The translations under genes and the position numbers were made by a program. This document shows, one piece after another, positions 8,654-33,828 of a stretch of DNA of 64,000 nucleotides. The notes beneath the pieces are model-generated. The model worked only from the letters and a program-made list of their open reading frames with translations. It did no database searches and was not told the origin of the DNA. Numbering within the stretch: the first letter of the stretch is position 1; each line of letters opens with the position of its first letter. Source of the DNA: a virus. Where the stretch lies: IMG/VR virus record IMGVR_UViG_3300031857_000133, positions 2,904 to 66,903 of that record. One strand, 5' to 3'.

Positions 8654-9568
8654 TTAGCCCCATTTGACAATAACGACACCTGAACCACCATTGGTTGTTG
8701 CACCGCCACCACCACCGCCACGATTAGATACAGCTGGAGTTCCTGCACTAGTGACACCTGCTGTACCACCATTCGCACCACCACAAATGAAATGTCCAAA
8801 ACCACCTGAGCCTGCTGGCGTATCAATTGCACCTCCACCACCACCAGCAAAACCAGTATTTGAACCGGTAATTGTTGAAAATATTCCTATACCACCGTTT
8901 CCTGCAATGATAGGTCCACCCCAAAAATTCGTGCTACTACCACCACCTACTCCACCGGCACCACCTCCACCACCAACACCTTTGGTGCCAGTATTGAAAA
9001 AACCAGCACCGCCATCAAAACCTTCTGCTGGACTGTAAGCACCAGCATTTCCTAAGCCACCCGGTGAATTTGGACCCCAAGCACCAGGTTGATTTGAAAC
9101 TCCTCCTCCACCTCCAGAACCGCCAGCAAATCCGCCACCTAAAAATGTATCATTTGCACCACCACCGCCGCCGGTTCCCCAAACTGCACCACCTCCACTT
9201 GTCGTAACAAAAAAACCACTATTTGAACCTGATGCTGAACTTCCTCCAGCACCGACAGAAATCGTATAACTTGTTCCAGGAGACACTGAATGTGAGTTGC
9301 TGATTCTAACTCCTCCTCCACCACCGCCTCCACCAGCAACGCCACCACCGCCTCCACCAGCAACAATAAGATAACTGATAGTTGAAACGCCTGGTGGCAC
9401 AATCCATGTATCGGATGATAAGAATATTCTAAAGGGAGGACCTATTGGTCCGAAACCCGGTGCTGTAAATCTCCTTAAACTGAATAAATTATCTTTGTAG
9501 TTACGAACGCCCGGCGTAGTAAATTTTTTTACACTGAATTTATTATTCGTATACCTACGAATCGACAT
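8654..9568 (-). CDS. glycine-rich adhesin-like protein (single polyglycine domain)
   Basis: W.VP.GV..ISYLIVAGGGGGG...GGSGVVIVKW architecture with multiple GGG runs, as in phage glycine-rich (gp38-like) receptor-binding domains. Confidence 0.7.
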   Translation of the reverse strand: MSIRRYTNNKFSVKKFTTPGVRNYKDNLFSLRRFTAPGFGPIGPPFRIFLSSDTWIVPPGVSTISYLIVAGGGGGGVAGGGGGGGGVRISNSHSVSPGTSYTISVGAGGSSASGSNSGFFVTTSGGGAVWGTGGGGGANDTFLGGGFAGGSGGGGGVSNQPGAWGPNSPGGLGNAGAYSPAEGFDGGAGFFNTGTKGVGGGGGAGGVGGGSSTNFWGGPIIAGNGGIGIFSTITGSNTGFAGGGGGAIDTPAGSGGFGHFICGGANGGTAGVTSAGTPAVSNRGGGGGGATTNGGSGVVIVKWG

Positions 9569-9897
9569 TAGTACATCTCCGTACCAAATGCACTAAACGA
9601 AACTGTGGTTGTATTGGCGTTTACTGATATTTGCGACGAAGCATTTAAAGTAATACCTAAACTTAAAGAAATAGAATCATTACCCGGAATAGACACACGC
9701 CACGCTAGATAGTTTGCATTTGCAGTCGCTACGCCAGATACATTTGCGGCCACACTAAACACGGCAGCGTTAGCATCCAAATTAGCAATATTAATTGATG
9801 AAATGACAGCGGAATTTGCAGCAGGTACTTGATACAATCTTGTTAAAGTGTTTGCTGCTGGATTTTGTTGACCTAAAATGGTATAATTTCTTGGCAT
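9568..9897 (-). CDS. small fibre-associated adaptor-like protein (ILGQ type)
   Basis: 109 aa, beta-rich; close paralog of 31413-31757; its stop overlaps the start of the downstream Gly-rich gene. Confidence 0.55.
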   Translation of the reverse strand: MPRNYTILGQQNPAANTLTRLYQVPAANSAVISSINIANLDANAAVFSVAANVSGVATANANYLAWRVSIPGNDSISLSLGITLNASSQISVNANTTTVSFSAFGTEMY

Positions 9898-9906
9898 TAT
9901 TTTTCC

Positions 9907-10227
9907 TTATGAGCCTAAACCAAATAAAAAATAATCTTCAAAGGCGTTAGGTTCAGATAACTTAGCGTTTGTGACTGCGCCATTCGCAATCAGATTTTCT
10001 GTGACTGAACTTGCAACAATATTATTTGTGCGAACAACATTTGATGACAACAAATTACCCGTAATAGAACCTGCAACAATATTGTTCGTTGCAATAACAT
10101 TTGACGGCAATAAATTACCGGTTATAGCACCAGTAACAATATTGTTTGTGCTGACAGAAGTAGGTCCTATGGTATTACCAATTACGGCACCACTTTGAAT
10201 TATACTCGTTCTAACTCTTTGTATCAT
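9907..10227 (-). CDS. short fibre stem protein with NNIVxGxITGNL repeats
   Basis: 20-aa repeats and C-terminal FEDYFLFGLGS, similar to the end of 31772-32320. Confidence 0.55.
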   Translation of the reverse strand: MIQRVRTSIIQSGAVIGNTIGPTSVSTNNIVTGAITGNLLPSNVIATNNIVAGSITGNLLSSNVVRTNNIVASSVTENLIANGAVTNAKLSEPNAFEDYFLFGLGS

Positions 10228-10235
10228 TCTAAACC

Positions 10236-10973
10236 TTAACTAATTTGTCCTTGAGCCAGTGCAAAATTGCTGTTTGATGCCAACACCGTGTATGTATTTG
10301 CTGCTGTCTTTAAAATATTAAATGAATATAAATCGATTGATTCTTGTTGTGCTGTAGCAAAACCTGGTGCAGAATTGCCTAACCACCAAACAGTTTGTAA
10401 AACTCCATCTACATGTACATTTGCACGATATCTTATGGCGCCTTGCTTTAACAAAATTGCAGAACTAACTGATTGTCCTAAACCTAATTGAGAGTCTAAA
10501 GTATTTTGTGTATTTGCTCTAAAGTTGAATGTTACATTACCAGTGGTGTTTGACGAAAAGAAATATACAGTATTATTCAAAACATTAATAATCACATTAC
10601 CAGTAGCACCAGTAGTAAATACATTTGCAGTTTCAAAAACTCTAACTAAAGATAAAGATAGATTGGGTGTAAGTGTATTTGAGCCCACAGCCGATGCTGC
10701 AATCAGGTTACCTGTGACAGAACCAGCAACAATATTATTTGTACCAATGATGTTCGGATTTAAATGGTTACCAGATATTGATGCATTAACAATCAAATTA
10801 CCAGTAATAGAACCAGCAACAATATTATTTGTACCAATAATGTTCGGATTCAAATGATTGCCAGAAATCGCCGCTGCCGCTATTGAGTTACCTTGAATAG
10901 CACCCGTGGCAATTTTGCCTGCAATGATGGCGGCTTCTGCTATACGACCCGATTCTACTTTTTGTTCTGACAT
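10236..10973 (-). CDS. tail fibre segment protein (repeat shaft plus C-terminal TYTVL domain)
   Basis: 30-aa direct repeat ISGNHLNPNIIGTNNIVAGS.TGNLI; C-terminal ~140-aa domain paralogous to those in 12088-12732 and 29070-30026. Confidence 0.6.
   Translation of the reverse strand: MSEQKVESGRIAEAAIIAGKIATGAIQGNSIAAAAISGNHLNPNIIGTNNIVAGSITGNLIVNASISGNHLNPNIIGTNNIVAGSVTGNLIAASAVGSNTLTPNLSLSLVRVFETANVFTTGATGNVIINVLNNTVYFFSSNTTGNVTFNFRANTQNTLDSQLGLGQSVSSAILLKQGAIRYRANVHVDGVLQTVWWLGNSAPGFATAQQESIDLYSFNILKTAANTYTVLASNSNFALAQGQIS
10720..10870. repeat. coding direct repeat with 90-bp period
   Basis: aaccagcaacaatattatttgtaccaat.atgttcggatt.aaatg occurs at 10721 and again at 10811. Confidence 0.8.
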
Positions 10974-32320: not shown

Positions 32321-32655
32321 TAGGAAATCTCCAGAACTGAAGCAATAACATCAGCGGAAGATGCTACGGATGTATTTACTGCTAAGTAATCTCCTGCTTC
32401 CAACACAAGTTTTTGATCGCCACCAATAGGCACCAATGCACCACCAGGAGCAATCGTAGCATTCAGAACCAAATATACATTCGGTGCAGCAGCACCAGCG
32501 CACGTTAAAATAACGTTTGCCGCAATTGGTGAACCTGTAATGTTAGCGATTGTCATACCGATAACTGTGGCTTGCACACCAGCAGCAGCCGCATATACGT
32601 TCTGAGCAGTCGTTCCTGCCGCTTTGAGAACATTGTTTTTAAAATTATTAGCCAT
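32320..32655 (-). CDS. small fibre-associated adaptor-like protein (MANNFK type)
   Basis: 111 aa; TVIGMTIAN...KLVLEAGD...SVLEIS; its stop overlaps the next start; late promoter AATAAATA at 32678-32685. Confidence 0.55.
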   Translation of the reverse strand: MANNFKNNVLKAAGTTAQNVYAAAAGVQATVIGMTIANITGSPIAANVILTCAGAAAPNVYLVLNATIAPGGALVPIGGDQKLVLEAGDYLAVNTSVASSADVIASVLEIS

Positions 32656-32684
32656 TAAATCCTCTGTTTTTCTTCAGTATTTAT

Positions 32685-33605
32685 TTAACCTAAGGCAATC
32701 GCAAACGCAATCGATGAATCAATTGCCGCTGAAATGGTGCCGTAAATTGCAGTATTTGCTTGACCTACCAAAAGTGTAATATTACCTGTGCTTGTATTTA
32801 AGTTGGCAGCATTAACAGAACCAGCGACACTTAAATCATCAAATCCAAGTGAGTCTAAAGTCGTATTACCCGAAATGGTCAGATTACCATAAATGAATGC
32901 ATCACCACCAATATAAGCATTGCTTGTGATATTTGCTACGGCAATATTACCACCAACAACTAAATTTCGAGTGATATTCGAAGTTGTGCCAGTTACAGTT
33001 AAATTTCCTGGTACGGAAAGTGAACTGGATGATAGATCGATATTTGCAATATTTGCTAATGGCGCAACGATGCTACTACCAACATTCAATGTTGTTGTGA
33101 CATTTGCTCTTGTAATATTACCAGATATAGTTACATTTGAAGCAAACGTATTTCCAACAACAACTAAAGTTTGAGCAATATTAGCATTGCCTGCTACAGC
33201 CAAATCGTTAAATCCAATGGCGTCTAAAGTAGTATTACCCGAAATAGTTAGATTGCCGTATAAGAAAGTATCGCCACCAACAAACAATCTACTTGTAACG
33301 TTGGCTGAAATTATGTTCGCAATTACATTAGCATTACGTCCAATCGTCAAATCTCTAGGTACCGTTACATCATTATCTAAGAAAAGAACATTAGCAAGAT
33401 TTGCTGTGTTTGCCCTTAACGTGTTGATGTTTGCTAGTGTACGAACATTTAGAGAAGCATCAGAACCTTCAATAAAAATTGAAGAGTTGGCATAAAATCC
33501 ACCACTCGTATTGTTGGTTAGATTATTGGCTACCGCCACTAAAGTGGAAGTGGTAGTTAGCCACTCTTCAAAAGTATTGGCTGTTGAAAGTTGATCTATT
33601 GCCAT
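32685..33605 (-). CDS. proximal tail fibre protein (GNLT beta-helix repeats, ends AFAIALG)
   Basis: N-terminal NTFEEWL motif; internal duplicated GGD.F.YGNLTISGNTTLD..GF.DL.VAG segment. Confidence 0.6.
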   Translation of the reverse strand: MAIDQLSTANTFEEWLTTTSTLVAVANNLTNNTSGGFYANSSIFIEGSDASLNVRTLANINTLRANTANLANVLFLDNDVTVPRDLTIGRNANVIANIISANVTSRLFVGGDTFLYGNLTISGNTTLDAIGFNDLAVAGNANIAQTLVVVGNTFASNVTISGNITRANVTTTLNVGSSIVAPLANIANIDLSSSSLSVPGNLTVTGTTSNITRNLVVGGNIAVANITSNAYIGGDAFIYGNLTISGNTTLDSLGFDDLSVAGSVNAANLNTSTGNITLLVGQANTAIYGTISAAIDSSIAFAIALG

Positions 33606-33606
33606 C

Positions 33607-33828
33607 TTATGTTCTCGTTACAAGTTGTTGGAGAAGATTCTTGATTTCTGATATATCTTCTTCTAATTTATTTACTTTATTTTCCAAGTTCTGTTTCTCT
33701 TGTAGTTCTTTTATTTTTTGATCCCTCTCAGCATAATATGCTTGAAATTCTTCACGATCAGTATTCATTAAAACTCCACTTCTCGTATCACGAACTAAAT
33801 TTTTCTTTTCTTTAATTTGTACAAACAT
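33607..33828 (-). CDS. small coiled-coil protein downstream of the VrlC-like gene
   Basis: LVRDTRSGVLMNTD followed by a heptad coiled coil (LEEDISEIKNLLQQL). Confidence 0.6.
   Translation of the reverse strand: MFVQIKEKKNLVRDTRSGVLMNTDREEFQAYYAERDQKIKELQEKQNLENKVNKLEEDISEIKNLLQQLVTRT

Follow-up and report, generated by a model that had tools for sequence, protein, structure and literature searches.

Matching end-peptides and connector-like jelly-roll proteins, recurrent in hundreds of aquatic phages, suggest a three-part fibre joint

The fibre gene cluster and its parts

In the 64,000-nucleotide stretch of viral DNA analysed here (the window), 25 minus-strand ORFs are tightly packed between the gene of a 2077-aa structural protein and gp13 (Table 1). 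The stop/start overlaps reported in the initial annotation (at 9568, 11186, 12088, 27742 and 32320) are TAATG junctions in all five cases, and the gaps at the remaining junctions of the cluster are 0-92 nt. The ORF list, the profile matches and the pairwise comparisons confirmed the observation that these genes are built from a few paralogous parts, which are four approx. 110-aa phrog_1276 proteins (predicted jelly-rolls), five Gly_rich_2 proteins with nine domains, repeat shafts and a common C-terminal domain. The best explanation of the region is that a distant T4-like aquatic myovirus has its receptor-binding genes clustered here and encodes its fibres piecewise.

Table 1. Genes of the cluster and its flanks (positions in the window)
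Feature	Position	Strand	Basis
2077-aa structural gene	33831-40064		one flank of the cluster
73-aa coiled-coil-like protein, first gene after the 2077-aa protein	33607..33828	-	phrog_473 'virion structural protein', E 2.4e-20
306-aa repeat shaft, end AFAIALG (tag class A)	32685..33605	-	sequence; weak phrog_1469/5070 matches
Jelly-roll protein A (111 aa, MANNFK)	32320..32655	-	phrog_1276, E 1.1e-7
182-aa shaft, MSYIGN N-terminal domain, ITGNxIA repeats, end FDDAFLFGGM (tag class F)	31772..32320	-	phrog_892/18673 tail-fibre matches
Jelly-roll protein B (114 aa, ..YRILGQ)	31413..31757	-	phrog_1276
301-aa Gly-rich tip (MAIKRI..)	30495..31400	-	PF21722, E 2.9e-14
139-aa small protein downstream of 301-aa tip	30038..30457	-	phrog_20715/9114/1787, function unknown
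318-aa protein: MSYIGN domain, repeats, C-terminal phrog_5906 ('TYTVL') domain	29070..30026	-	
309-aa Gly-rich tip (MPRLN..)	28139..29068	-	PF21722, E 1.2e-11
Jelly-roll protein C (127 aa, MAAPNIV)	27742..28125	-	phrog_1276, E 5e-4
813-aa tip, three Gly_rich_2 domains (..NGGIIG..GVWT)	25301..27742	-	PF21722, E 1.2e-47, 3 stretches
834-aa tip, three Gly_rich_2 domains	22793..25297	-	PF21722, E 5.5e-58, 3 stretches
133-aa 'MAHFA' protein downstream of tips	22340..22741	-	phrog_7759, E 1.9e-47
111-aa protein upstream of 1770-aa fibre	21912..22247	-	phrog_1084, E 3e-27
73-aa protein, end LDGGLF	21687..21908	-	sequence
1770-aa long fibre, end GKAIAMSIVFGG (tag class V)	16365..21677	-	weak Phage_T7_tail, DUF2460 matches
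160-aa short fibre protein (MLQTIGSARI..)	15879..16361	-	tail-fibre PHROG matches
1028-aa virion structural protein	12733..15819	-	phrog_5838, E 1e-291
214-aa protein with phrog_5906 C-terminal domain	12088..12732	-	phrog_5906, E 3.2e-16
300-aa protein (MPLVTT..)	11186..12088	-	phrog_1325, E 2.3e-30
59-aa Cys-rich small protein	11007..11186	-	phrog_13558, E 2.5e-12
245-aa protein: repeats and phrog_5906 domain	10236..10973	-	phrog_5906, E 9.5e-23
106-aa mini-shaft, end FEDYFLFGLGS (tag class F)	9907..10227	-	
Jelly-roll protein D (109 aa, ..YTILGQ)	9568..9897	-	phrog_1276, E 4e-8
304-aa Gly-rich tip (MSIRRY..), last gene before gp13	8654..9568	-	PF21722, E 8.2e-8
gp13	7685-8638		other flank of the cluster

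The C-terminal tags proposed for the 306-, 1770-, 182- and 106-aa proteins and for one of the 73-aa proteins are all present, and the N-terminal motifs MSYIGN, NGGIIG..GVWT and M.I.R occur twice each, as claimed. The motif M.Q.[VI]....I is exact in the 160- and 106-aa proteins, while its third claimed occurrence, in the 245-aa protein (MSEQKVESGRI), needs a one-residue shift; 'MP...AS' is only a loose match between the 309-aa Gly_rich_2 protein and the 300-aa phrog_1325 protein. Several tags are ends of homologous domains rather than free-standing short motifs, since the two MSYIGN proteins are 34.5% identical over 168 aa and the 813- and 834-aa tips 46% over their full length. The 245-aa protein is 40.6% identical to the 318-aa protein over 239 aa and 37% identical to the 214-aa protein.

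Orthologues of the 306-aa shaft (91-364 aa) retain the ...IAFAIALG end, relatives of the 106-aa mini-shaft (47-116 aa) share its end, and in the alignment of the 182-aa shaft (A5) the repeat number varies and the F-D--L-GG end is invariant. The only class V end within the window is that of the 1770-aa fibre. The class V tag (GKAIAMxIVFGG) is portable; it is carried by otherwise unrelated proteins of 72-977 aa, and in 149 of the 218 pairs of class V upstream proteins with any BLAST hit the shared stretch is confined to the two C-termini and no longer than 60 aa. Starts of the 160-aa type come after ..IVFGG proteins at three loci (L008, L009, L010).

The four proteins of 109-127 aa which had been proposed to be paralogous adaptors all match phrog_1276 (E 4e-8 to 5e-4) and were all recovered by a profile search of the record. 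B and D are 59% identical (E 2e-44), A and D 27% (E 6e-4), and the AF2 model of B (pLDDT 84) is an eight-strand beta sandwich. A Pfam search found no family for any of the four, and the phrog_1276 jelly-roll is without a solved relative as well. Relatives of B amount to at least 990 database clusters, and 565 relatives of C were found in viral contigs. In S-SCSM1, S-TIM5 and MaMV-DC, structural relatives of approx. 110 aa bear a virion-protein annotation; the virion proteins of S-SCSM1 as a group were called by mass spectrometry.

The Gly-rich tips are of a known kind of receptor-binding domain and form no new adhesin class. They resemble the polyglycine "brush" receptor binders of cyanophage Pam3 (gp24), the Bxb1 tail tip and the ALK GRD, and the best fold matches of the 301-aa tip model were 9d93_Q, 7ypx_A and the ALK GRD, respectively from Bxb1, the Pam3 fibre and ALK. 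In this model the N-terminal residues 1-27 are unstructured, and this segment is the conserved portion of otherwise exchanged tips. In relatives with 95-98% identical gp13 the slot of the 304-aa tip holds tips of 594-905 aa, and in L003 one tip is outright swapped for another. Between the window and L002 the jelly-rolls are 81-99% identical and the tips 68-79%. The 309-aa-type tip follows a 318-type protein also in L002 (once) and L007 (twice). The 300-aa MPLVTT.. protein gave no match in the Pfam search and lies outside Gly_rich_2.

As for the small proteins, the phrog_473-type 73-aa gene is syntenic in L002-L007 and L022, L003 and L004 conserve the other 73-aa protein together with the DGGLF end, and the phrog_1084-type protein also matches phrog_3304 'L-shaped tail fiber protein assembly' (E 4e-24). 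The 139-aa protein is 84-98% identical in L002-L007, and its family follows 11 of the 180 distinct Gly-rich proteins having a next gene. A homologue of the MAHFA protein, a candidate assembly factor with a TATAAATA motif 37 nt upstream of its gene, follows 71 of the same 180.

Gene order and class matching across viral contigs

The shaft/jelly-roll/tip order was surveyed in about 260 viral contigs. The order of shaft, jelly-roll and, usually, Gly-rich tip is kept in 23 related loci, in the distant loci L021 and L024, in 160 further loci retrieved with two other jelly-roll queries and in a locus set retrieved with the fused jelly-roll-tip protein P0241, most loci of which matched the LamG/Gly-rich part alone. 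The cultured phages HTVC033P (gp66-gp65-gp64), DSL-LC04 and phiPsal1 have an equal gene order. Among clusters having a next gene, 35 of the 52 in class B and 28 of the 40 in class C continue with a Gly-rich protein; in class A the jelly-roll precedes an MSYIGN protein in 9 of 9 cases by one tally and in 8 of 9 by another.

The expectation that, in phage genomes, a given tag class would be found together with its own adaptor class was clearly borne out. Among 115 jelly-roll genes with an upstream gene, dereplicated at 90%, 93 have the cognate end directly upstream (A 8/8, all ..IALG; B 51/56; C 34/40), no cross-class pair was seen, and not one label shuffle out of 10,000 came up to 93 (mean 37); the tag classes for this tally and for that of the P0241 set were defined post hoc on data already inspected, and modules passed on as blocks do not count as independent cases here. 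The pairing exceeds chance, the background frequency of the tag types being only 37 of 1686 other ORFs. The three sets consist of AFAIALG ends, MANxFKN adaptors and MSYIGN proteins (class A), of F[DE]D.FL.G-type ends, Y.[IV]LGQ adaptors and M.I.R-type Gly-rich tips (class B/D), and of GKAIAMxIVFGG ends, MAAPNIV adaptors and NGGIIG/GVW-type Gly-rich tips (class C).

When the window's own tags and adaptors were used as fixed references, class A matched in 11/11 cases, the GKAIAMSIVFGG-like end of the 1770-aa fibre preceded 64 of the 84 jelly-roll C relatives having an upstream gene, and no F-V crossing occurred. Since 64/84 relatives of the MAAPNIV adaptor sit behind this tag, the link which had been drawn between the 1770-aa fibre and that distant adaptor is backed. 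A recognised tag is missing upstream of 22 of the 115 jelly-roll genes, including the window's own jelly-roll C, where the upstream gene is a Gly-rich tip; the tag regex overlooked variants, e.g. ..AMAMIFGF.

The jelly-roll also occurs as part of larger proteins. It is N-terminal to Gly_rich_2 in P0241 and two more proteins, P0150 combines it with a collagen-like fibre, and it forms the C-terminus of the fibre-like proteins P0197, P0226 and P0235; in L202 a jelly-roll-Gly_rich_2 fusion comes directly after an 850-aa protein ending ..FLLMGA. In L010, L011, L013, L014, L018 and L019 an M.LKR-type tip comes directly after an F-tag shaft, without an intervening jelly-roll gene, and in L008, L012 and L013 shaft and tip are a single polypeptide (..FEDFFL-TSGF-TANRLTNQRFTV..). 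Because of these fusions and adaptor-less pairs the jelly-roll is not an obligatory spacer. The plug-adaptor-socket code of the initial annotation is supported as far as class matching is concerned; the six adaptor-less and three fused loci speak against it as a strict rule. Its exact two-chain branched topology, the 111 aa -> 73 aa (DGGLF) -> 1770 aa steps and the side sockets are putative.

A possible three-part joint and its alternatives

The matching ends and the connector-like proteins suggest a joint of three parts. The first would be the last 7-12 residues of a repeat shaft, a conserved hydrophobic-Gly peptide, the second the approx. 110-aa phrog_1276 jelly-roll, and the third the next protein with its class-specific N-terminus, mostly a TNF-like plus polyglycine 'brush' binder of the Pam3 gp24/Gly_rich_2 type. 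In the window the joints would lead from AFAIALG through the MANNFK protein to the MSYIGN proteins (class A), from F[DE]D.FLFG.. through the ..ILGQ proteins to the M.I.R-type tips (class B/D), and from GKAIAMSIVFGG through the MAAPNIV protein to the NGGIIG..GVWT tips (class C). The jelly-roll would be a virion-borne connector which receives the C-terminal peptide of the shaft and also grips the flexible N-terminus of the distal protein, and conserved shafts could thereby bear exchangeable tips. The phage would display at least five Gly-rich tip proteins (nine binding domains) and other distal proteins. Binding, stoichiometry, virion presence and any branching we infer; the joint as a whole we hold to be somewhat likelier right than wrong. 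If true, it mounts exchangeable receptor-binding tips on phage fibres. In the literature no paper describing a shaft/jelly-roll/tip joint was found.

It is improbable that the jelly-rolls are instead assembly chaperones which bind the nascent tip, aid its folding or trimerisation and are released, remaining outside the virion. The Gly-rich fibre gp24 of Pam3 does require a chaperone, gp25, that is absent from virions (PMC9608196), jelly-roll and Gly-rich genes are tightly linked, and the jelly-roll gene is retained despite the shaft-tip fusion in L012 and L013. However, the jelly-roll gene precedes that of the tip, whereas in Pam3 gp25 is downstream by gene numbering, and the jelly-roll is found covalently N-terminal on tips and on a collagen-like fibre. 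Its variation tracks the upstream protein's end and not the variable tip, in class A it precedes MSYIGN shafts and not Gly-rich proteins (8 of 9), the chaperone-like downstream slot is taken by the MAHFA family after 71/180 tips, and the Pfam search of the jelly-rolls gave no match to tail-fibre assembly families.

A slightly poorer chance is given to the view that the jelly-rolls are small lectin-like receptor-binding or decoration modules at the shaft ends, the Gly-rich proteins being separate binders that share the operon. The DSL-LC04 and S-CBWM1 homologues carry the annotation 'putative lectin', the latter (gp15) being a lone copy amid non-structural genes, outside any fibre cluster, and the jelly-roll is C-terminal in P0197, P0226 and P0235. 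The fold search gave weak matches to the carbohydrate-binding modules CBM16 and CBM6 (TMq 0.26-0.41); generic viral jelly rolls, however, match at least as well. The jelly-rolls are far more conserved than the adjacent tips and their N-termini are near-invariant over very diverse contigs (MAAPNIVNV, ..YKVLGQ), which is unlike host-range determinants, and the fusion in L202 puts the jelly-roll between shaft tag and Gly-rich domain.

Least probable is that the matching ends reflect mere common descent of whole cassettes, with the hydrophobic-Gly ends as shaft folding or trimerisation caps without neighbour contact. In its favour, most loci come from few phage lineages with syntenic cassettes, F-type shaft ends also stand directly before other shafts or tips, and 37 ORFs bear a tag although no jelly-roll gene follows them. 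Against it, the class V end keeps its MAAPNIV neighbour on otherwise unrelated proteins, the pairing recurs in phages as different as a 53-kb pelagiphage, a 61-kb lake phage, a 31-kb siphovirus and those of myovirus-sized contigs, and the overlapping tallies of 115, 40 and 197 contain no cross-class pair.

Comparison with known fibre systems

In the T4 long tail fibre (gp34-gp35-gp36-gp37) the segments are encoded by separate genes, small proteins link the trimeric rods, and the genes stand in assembly order. The window is similar in its piecewise-encoded fibres, small putative connectors and gene order. It differs in that its jelly-rolls have no Pfam family and thus no match to T4 fibre families, the proposed connector is an approx. 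110-aa jelly-roll, its shafts terminate in short hydrophobic-Gly peptides of at least three classes, and the joint unit would be repeated several times in one phage.

In the branched tailspikes of CBA120 and G7C several receptor binders are mounted on each other via conserved N-terminal docking parts, with the use of T4 gp10-like docking domains. By description, the likeness lies in the proposed mounting of several receptor binders through conserved N-termini, whereas the window proteins gave no Pfam match to a gp10-like docking domain and their branching is putative.

In the fold search with the 301-aa tip model, Bxb1 9D93 (chains Qa/Qb; E 1.1e-4, TMt 0.49) ranked first. In the available part of the source, the polyglycine-rich 'brush' domains of Bxb1 are regarded as antireceptors in a siphovirus tail-tip context, which differs from the window, and that part reports no jelly-roll partner or tag system (PMC13243795).

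The S16/T2-type gp38 is likewise a polyglycine-rich adhesin encoded apart from the fibre it tips; it sits non-covalently on the end of trimeric gp37 and sets host specificity, attaching directly via its own N-terminal domain without a third protein (PMC9608196). That arrangement is two-part, whereas in the window the jelly-roll would be the third protein. The Pfam search gave no PF05268 match in the window tips, which have no sequence family in common with gp38.

The architecture of the window tips, which match PF21722, is TNF-like plus glycine-rich, as in the receptor-binding Pam3 gp24 (PDB 7YPX; PMC9608196), and 7ypx_A was the third-best fold match of the 301-aa tip model (E 4.7e-4). Pam3 gp24 docks to the baseplate by its own N-terminal helices, and its TNF-like/Gly-rich junction is clamped by a beta-sandwich domain. 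This domain belongs to gp25, a Mu Tfa-like chaperone whose gene lies downstream and which is missing from virions (PMC9608196). In contrast, the window tips have a short flexible N-terminus, an upstream jelly-roll partner and 1-3 domains; relatives have tips as long as 1109 aa, a length that would fit up to about 4 domains.

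The virus and the parts of its fibre cluster

Every gene of the fibre region is carried on the minus strand, and downstream of it the neck and tail genes of T4 have clear homologues. The gp13 protein (317 aa) matched 'neck protein' or head-tail adaptor genes of 1488 phage records, the identity never exceeding 50%; the best matches were Methylophilales phage Melnitz, pelagimyophages, Caulobacter phage Cr30 and cyanophage P-TIM40. The source record is linear, 66.9 kb long and estimated to be 38% complete, and a megablast search of window 5782-12000 against phage records gave no DNA-level match. 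As judged from its genes, the window thus belongs to an uncultured, distant T4-like myovirus, of whose genome it is a fragment.

Twenty-five ORFs separate the gene of the 2077-aa DUF4815 protein from gp13. All five stop/start overlaps named in the initial annotation proved to be TAATG, and the other gaps are 0-92 nt. Such gaps and 1-nt overlaps suggest very long transcripts. The genes of the 111-aa, 73-aa (DGGLF) and 1770-aa proteins share synteny with two of the related loci fetched, L003 and L004. Since the rise in G+C coincides with the Gly-rich genes, the high-G+C stretch (see table) is probably an effect of GGN codons and not of foreign origin.

Coordinates of the features discussed, in the window or in related loci (L numbers)
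Feature	Sequence	Coordinates	Strand	Remarks
gp13, neck gene	window	7685-8638		
59-aa Cys-rich protein	window	11007-11186	-	phrog_13558; two CxxC-like pairs; lies within the fibre cluster; 1-nt overlap with the stop of the 300-aa phrog_1325 gene
High-G+C stretch	window	22000-28000		G+C 46-51% vs ~38-40% elsewhere; GC skew strongly negative
133-aa 'MAHFA' protein	window	22340-22741	-	phrog_7759
T4-type late-promoter-like TATAAATA	window	22778-22785	-	exact; 37 nt upstream of the 133-aa gene; sole exact copy on the coding strand in 6-41 kb
139-aa protein	window	30038-30457	-	after the 301-aa tip
33607-33828 protein	window	33607-33828		
Mini-shaft and Gly-rich tip in a single polypeptide (natural shaft-tip fusion)	L013	4218-5588		F motif slightly altered (..FEDFFL..); N-terminal ..RLTNQRFTV of the tip kept
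Mini-shaft and Gly-rich tip in a single polypeptide (natural shaft-tip fusion)	L008	4379-5575		as in L013
S-CBWM1 gp15	L185	5001-5396		lone MAAPNI-type homologue; annotated 'putative lectin'
DSL-LC04 tag carrier	L187	2291-2941		216 aa; end ..GKSIAMAMIFGF; deposited annotation 'intramolecular chaperone auto-processing domain containing protein'

All-against-all BLAST and profile libraries indicated that a few recurring parts make up the cluster. These are five Gly_rich_2 (PF21722) proteins with nine domains in all and four phrog_1276 proteins of 109-127 aa (both by profile match), repeat shafts of ITGNxIA-like units, two copies of an N-terminal 'MSYIGN' domain and three of a phrog_5906 C-terminal domain. 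The C-terminal peptides quoted in the initial annotation are present, and so are most of its N-terminal motifs, but several of these 'tags' are the ends of homologous domains, as follows from the recurrence of the domains. Unlike them, the short hydrophobic-Gly C-termini of the shafts are real separate elements; they are referred to here as class A (AFAIALG), class F (F[DE]D.FL.G type) and class V (GKAIAMxIVFGG type, on the 1770-aa fibre).

Jelly-roll proteins and glycine-rich tips

The phrog_1276 proteins, jelly-rolls A (111 aa, MANNFK), B (114 aa, ..YRILGQ), C (127 aa, MAAPNIV) and D (109 aa, ..YTILGQ), matched the N-terminal ~110 positions of the phrog_1276 model with E-values of 1.1e-7, 3.9e-6, 5.1e-4 and 4e-8, respectively. 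A profile of the four paralogues found 3300 representative proteins at E<=1e-3, and two tandem copies were counted in 32 of the best 150 proteins listed. Jelly-roll B gave at least 990 database clusters, nearly all of 109-114 aa among those listed. In database fusions the domain is joined to Gly_rich_2 with an inserted LamG domain (P0241), is doubled and followed by collagen repeats (P0150), or stands C-terminally in fibre-like proteins (P0197, P0226, P0235).

The AlphaFold2 model of jelly-roll B (pLDDT 84) predicts an eight-strand beta sandwich. A PDB sequence search gave one match (E 0.5), and the PDB fold search retrieved generic jelly rolls only. The protein could be a lectin, which is how the homologue WJZ48129 of phage DSL-LC04 is annotated ('putative lectin'); the fold matches to CBM16 and CBM6 (TMq 0.26-0.41) are, however, no better than those to generic viral jelly rolls (up to 0.61). 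Among predicted viral structures there were 158 matches at E<=1e-3. They include ~110-aa proteins of S-SCSM1, S-TIM5 and MaMV-DC with a virion-protein annotation, and others correspond to a domain in the 'tail fiber-like' proteins that S-CAM1 and P-SSM2 encode; virion proteomics of S-SCSM1 are reported in PMC9602691. The ESM Atlas yielded only unnamed viral clusters for jelly-roll C and for the 133-aa protein.

The five Gly-rich proteins (301, 304, 309, 813 and 834 aa), called tips here, scored 33-197 bits against PF21722, whose curated cut-off is 24.3. The two largest contain three PF21722 stretches each, and a six-frame search of the virus record gave 7 matches above the cut-off. In the AlphaFold2 model of the 301-aa tip (mean pLDDT 64) residues 30-180 are confidently predicted, residues 1-27 appear unstructured and much of 183-265 falls below 50. 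Its best Foldseek matches were the Bxb1 tail tip (9d93_Q), the Pam3 fibre (7ypx_A) and the ALK/LTK GRD, with TM values of only 0.2-0.5. PMC9608196 describes the Pam3 architecture as one receptor-binding unit with a TNF-like and a glycine-rich part, which is related to S16 gp38; a chaperone that is encoded downstream, and that virions lack, aids its assembly. In PMC13243795 such domains are termed polyglycine-rich or 'brush' antireceptors. Taken with these descriptions, the fold matches suggest that the tips are, on predicted structure, a known kind of binder. The homologue search with the 301-aa tip was swamped by low-complexity Gly-rich matches, and four of its proteins entered alignment A3. 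The idea that the tandem triple tips act as pseudo-trimers in place of a homotrimer was dropped, since the tips of relatives vary widely (563-1109 aa), which suggests two to four domains.

In the loci collected, a homologue of the 133-aa MAHFA protein was found directly after 71 of the 180 distinct Gly-rich proteins with a next gene, and gp63 of phage HTVC033P has the same kind of start. This protein could belong to the cassette as a fourth conserved member, with tip assembly as its candidate role. The 139-aa protein, whose family follows 11 of the 180, is 84-98% identical in relatives in which the adjacent tip changes. The N-terminal part of a 94-aa protein encoded after the DSL-LC04 tip resembles it by eye.

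Matching of shaft ends and jelly-roll classes

Related loci were collected with the four-paralogue alignment (23 loci), with jelly-roll C (80, from at least 565 relatives in IMG/VR) and with a divergent family member (80). ORF calls were made mechanically, and HMMs derived from the alignments of this study supplied the labels. In close relatives three orders recur: an ..IALG shaft, a MANxFKN jelly-roll and an MSYIGN protein (class A); an F[DE]D.FL.G shaft, an ..ILGQ jelly-roll and an M.I.R-type Gly-rich tip (class B/D); and an ..I[IV]FGG shaft, a MAAPNIV jelly-roll and a NGGII-type tip (class C).

The co-occurrence of tag class and adaptor class across phage genomes, proposed earlier as a check, was borne out. 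The 214 jelly-roll genes formed 122 clusters at 90% identity, 115 of them with an upstream gene. The cognate end was found upstream in 93 of the 115 (A 8/8, B 51/56, C 34/40) and a non-cognate end in none, while such ends terminate 37 of 1686 other ORFs. None of 10,000 label shuffles reached 93 (mean 37). Since the tag classes of this tally had been defined after inspection of the data, the test was repeated with the five tags and four jelly-rolls of the window as fixed references. Class A then matched in 11/11 cases; class C was assigned to the tag of the 1770-aa fibre in 64 of 84, to the short AFAIALG tag in 5 and to none in 15. For B the count was 14/63 and for D 4 + 3 of 37, the other cases remaining below threshold because of the ..FLLMGA-type ends of distant relatives. 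No crossing between F and V occurred in this test.

Queries with a tandem-double member and a fused jelly-roll-tip protein added 3 and 80 loci, respectively, most of the 80 being matched on the LamG/Gly-rich part. In this set F-ends preceded 12 of the 19 class B genes with an upstream gene and V-ends 7 of 14 of class C, several of the 6 misses reading ..AMAMIFGF by eye; no class B or C jelly-roll stood behind the tag of the other class. The lone MANTFKN (class A) gene of the set lies behind ..IAFTIAFS, which the widened regex scored as tagV. Downstream N-termini agreed with the class in 9/9 (A), 31/52 (B) and 26/38 (C) cases, and 3 of class C were scored as B-type. The class V peptide proved portable. 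Proteins of 72 to 977 aa carry it, and 149 of the 218 carrier pairs with any BLAST hit share <=60 aa only, at both C-termini.

The order is also found in cultured phages. In Pelagibacter phage HTVC033P the 'putative tail fiber' gp66, ending ..GKAIAMAIVFG, is accompanied by gp65 (MATPNIVNV.., 120 aa) and gp64 (MANGGIIG.., 34% Gly), and DSL-LC04 has the same gene order. Should the auto-processing annotation of the DSL-LC04 carrier hold, some lineages might remove the end peptide by cleavage. In the Pontimonas siphovirus phiPsal1 an 86-aa protein ending ..LMLMGG precedes gp21, an ..YKILGQ protein, after which a Gly-rich gene is absent. Synechococcus phage S-CBWM1 gp15 is an exception to the cassette rule, with sugar-metabolism, phosphoesterase and tRNA genes as neighbours and no adjacent shaft or tip.

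A possible joint between shaft and tip

The most economical account of the cluster, drawn from gene order and terminal motifs, is a joint of three parts. In it a jelly-roll protein, itself conserved, would recognise the class-specific peptide that terminates the conserved shafts. The next protein, in most cases a receptor binder of the polyglycine kind, would complete the joint with its flexible N-terminus. The conservation of the jelly-rolls beside variable tips agrees with this account: comparison of the window with L002 gives 81-99% identity for the former and 68-79% for the latter, one tip is replaced in L003, and next to a 95-98% identical gp13 the last tip has lengths of 304 to 905 aa. 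The order is also consistent with L202: behind an 850-aa protein with a ..FLLMGA end lies one of 397 aa, in which an N-terminal jelly-roll is fused to a Gly-rich domain.

Against a strict rule of plug, adaptor and socket stand six loci in which an M.LKR-type tip directly follows an F-ended mini-shaft, and three in which shaft and tip are fused, the F motif and the tip N-terminal motif lying four residues apart. Behind the fusion of L012 and of L013 comes a jelly-roll gene, and then gp13. Thus the chain does not require the jelly-roll as a spacer. The protein may instead act as a clamp on the junction, or a single gene may supply several shaft-tip pairs in trans. In the window jelly-roll C sits behind a Gly-rich tip and not behind a V-ended shaft, while at the same position L003, L004 and L006 have a 140-150-aa MSYIGN shaft ending ..IIFGG or ..LIFGG. 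As for the branched tree of two chains, only its class pairings, including that of the 1770-aa fibre, the MAAPNIV protein and the triple tips, have support from the comparison of loci; the tree itself exceeds the data. Another, less probable explanation is that the jelly-rolls make no contact at all with the products of neighbouring genes; the class matching speaks against it. A complex prediction with three copies of residues 120-182 of the 182-aa shaft, the 301-aa tip and jelly-roll B scored 0.00 in two runs whose controls were not folded, and it counts neither for nor against binding.

Distal fibre parts set host range in tailed phages, and how uncultured aquatic phages attach or swap them is, to our knowledge, largely unknown. 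We put forward tentatively, and with some doubt, that a general class-coded snap joint, consisting of the shaft C-terminal hydrophobic-Gly peptide, the ~110-aa jelly-roll connector and the tip N-terminal peptide and so far undescribed, mounts and exchanges tips in aquatic myo-, sipho- and podoviruses, and that here joints of three orthogonal classes connect five or more polyglycine tips (nine domains), along with other distal proteins, in a branched fibre apparatus for several receptors. Among the papers searched, none described the triad of shaft tag, jelly-roll and tip, or IVFGG, FLLMGA or AFAIALG as phage motifs. If the proposal is true, sequence alone would tell which fibre carries which tip, and tip exchange with constant shafts would be accounted for. 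In laboratory hosts, phage receptor binders could be tested or re-targeted by means of such defined, orthogonal handles. The proposal would also give a role to a large family whose members, small but very abundant, now carry the annotations hypothetical, 'virion structural protein' or 'putative lectin'.

In a Pfam scan of 23 proteins, with jelly-roll D, the 59-aa protein and the 33607-33828 protein outside it, no match was found to T4 gp10-like docking domains, as in CBA120 and G7C. Jelly-rolls A, B and C matched no Pfam family at E<=0.01 and, judged by the same families, are not members of the T4 fibre connectors gp35/gp36. A chaperone of the Tfa type (Mu Tfa, Pam3 gp25) is a less probable alternative for the jelly-roll, given the lack of Pfam matches to A, B and C and a gene that lies upstream of the tip and not downstream; the 133-aa MAHFA gene is the better-placed candidate for such a chaperone.
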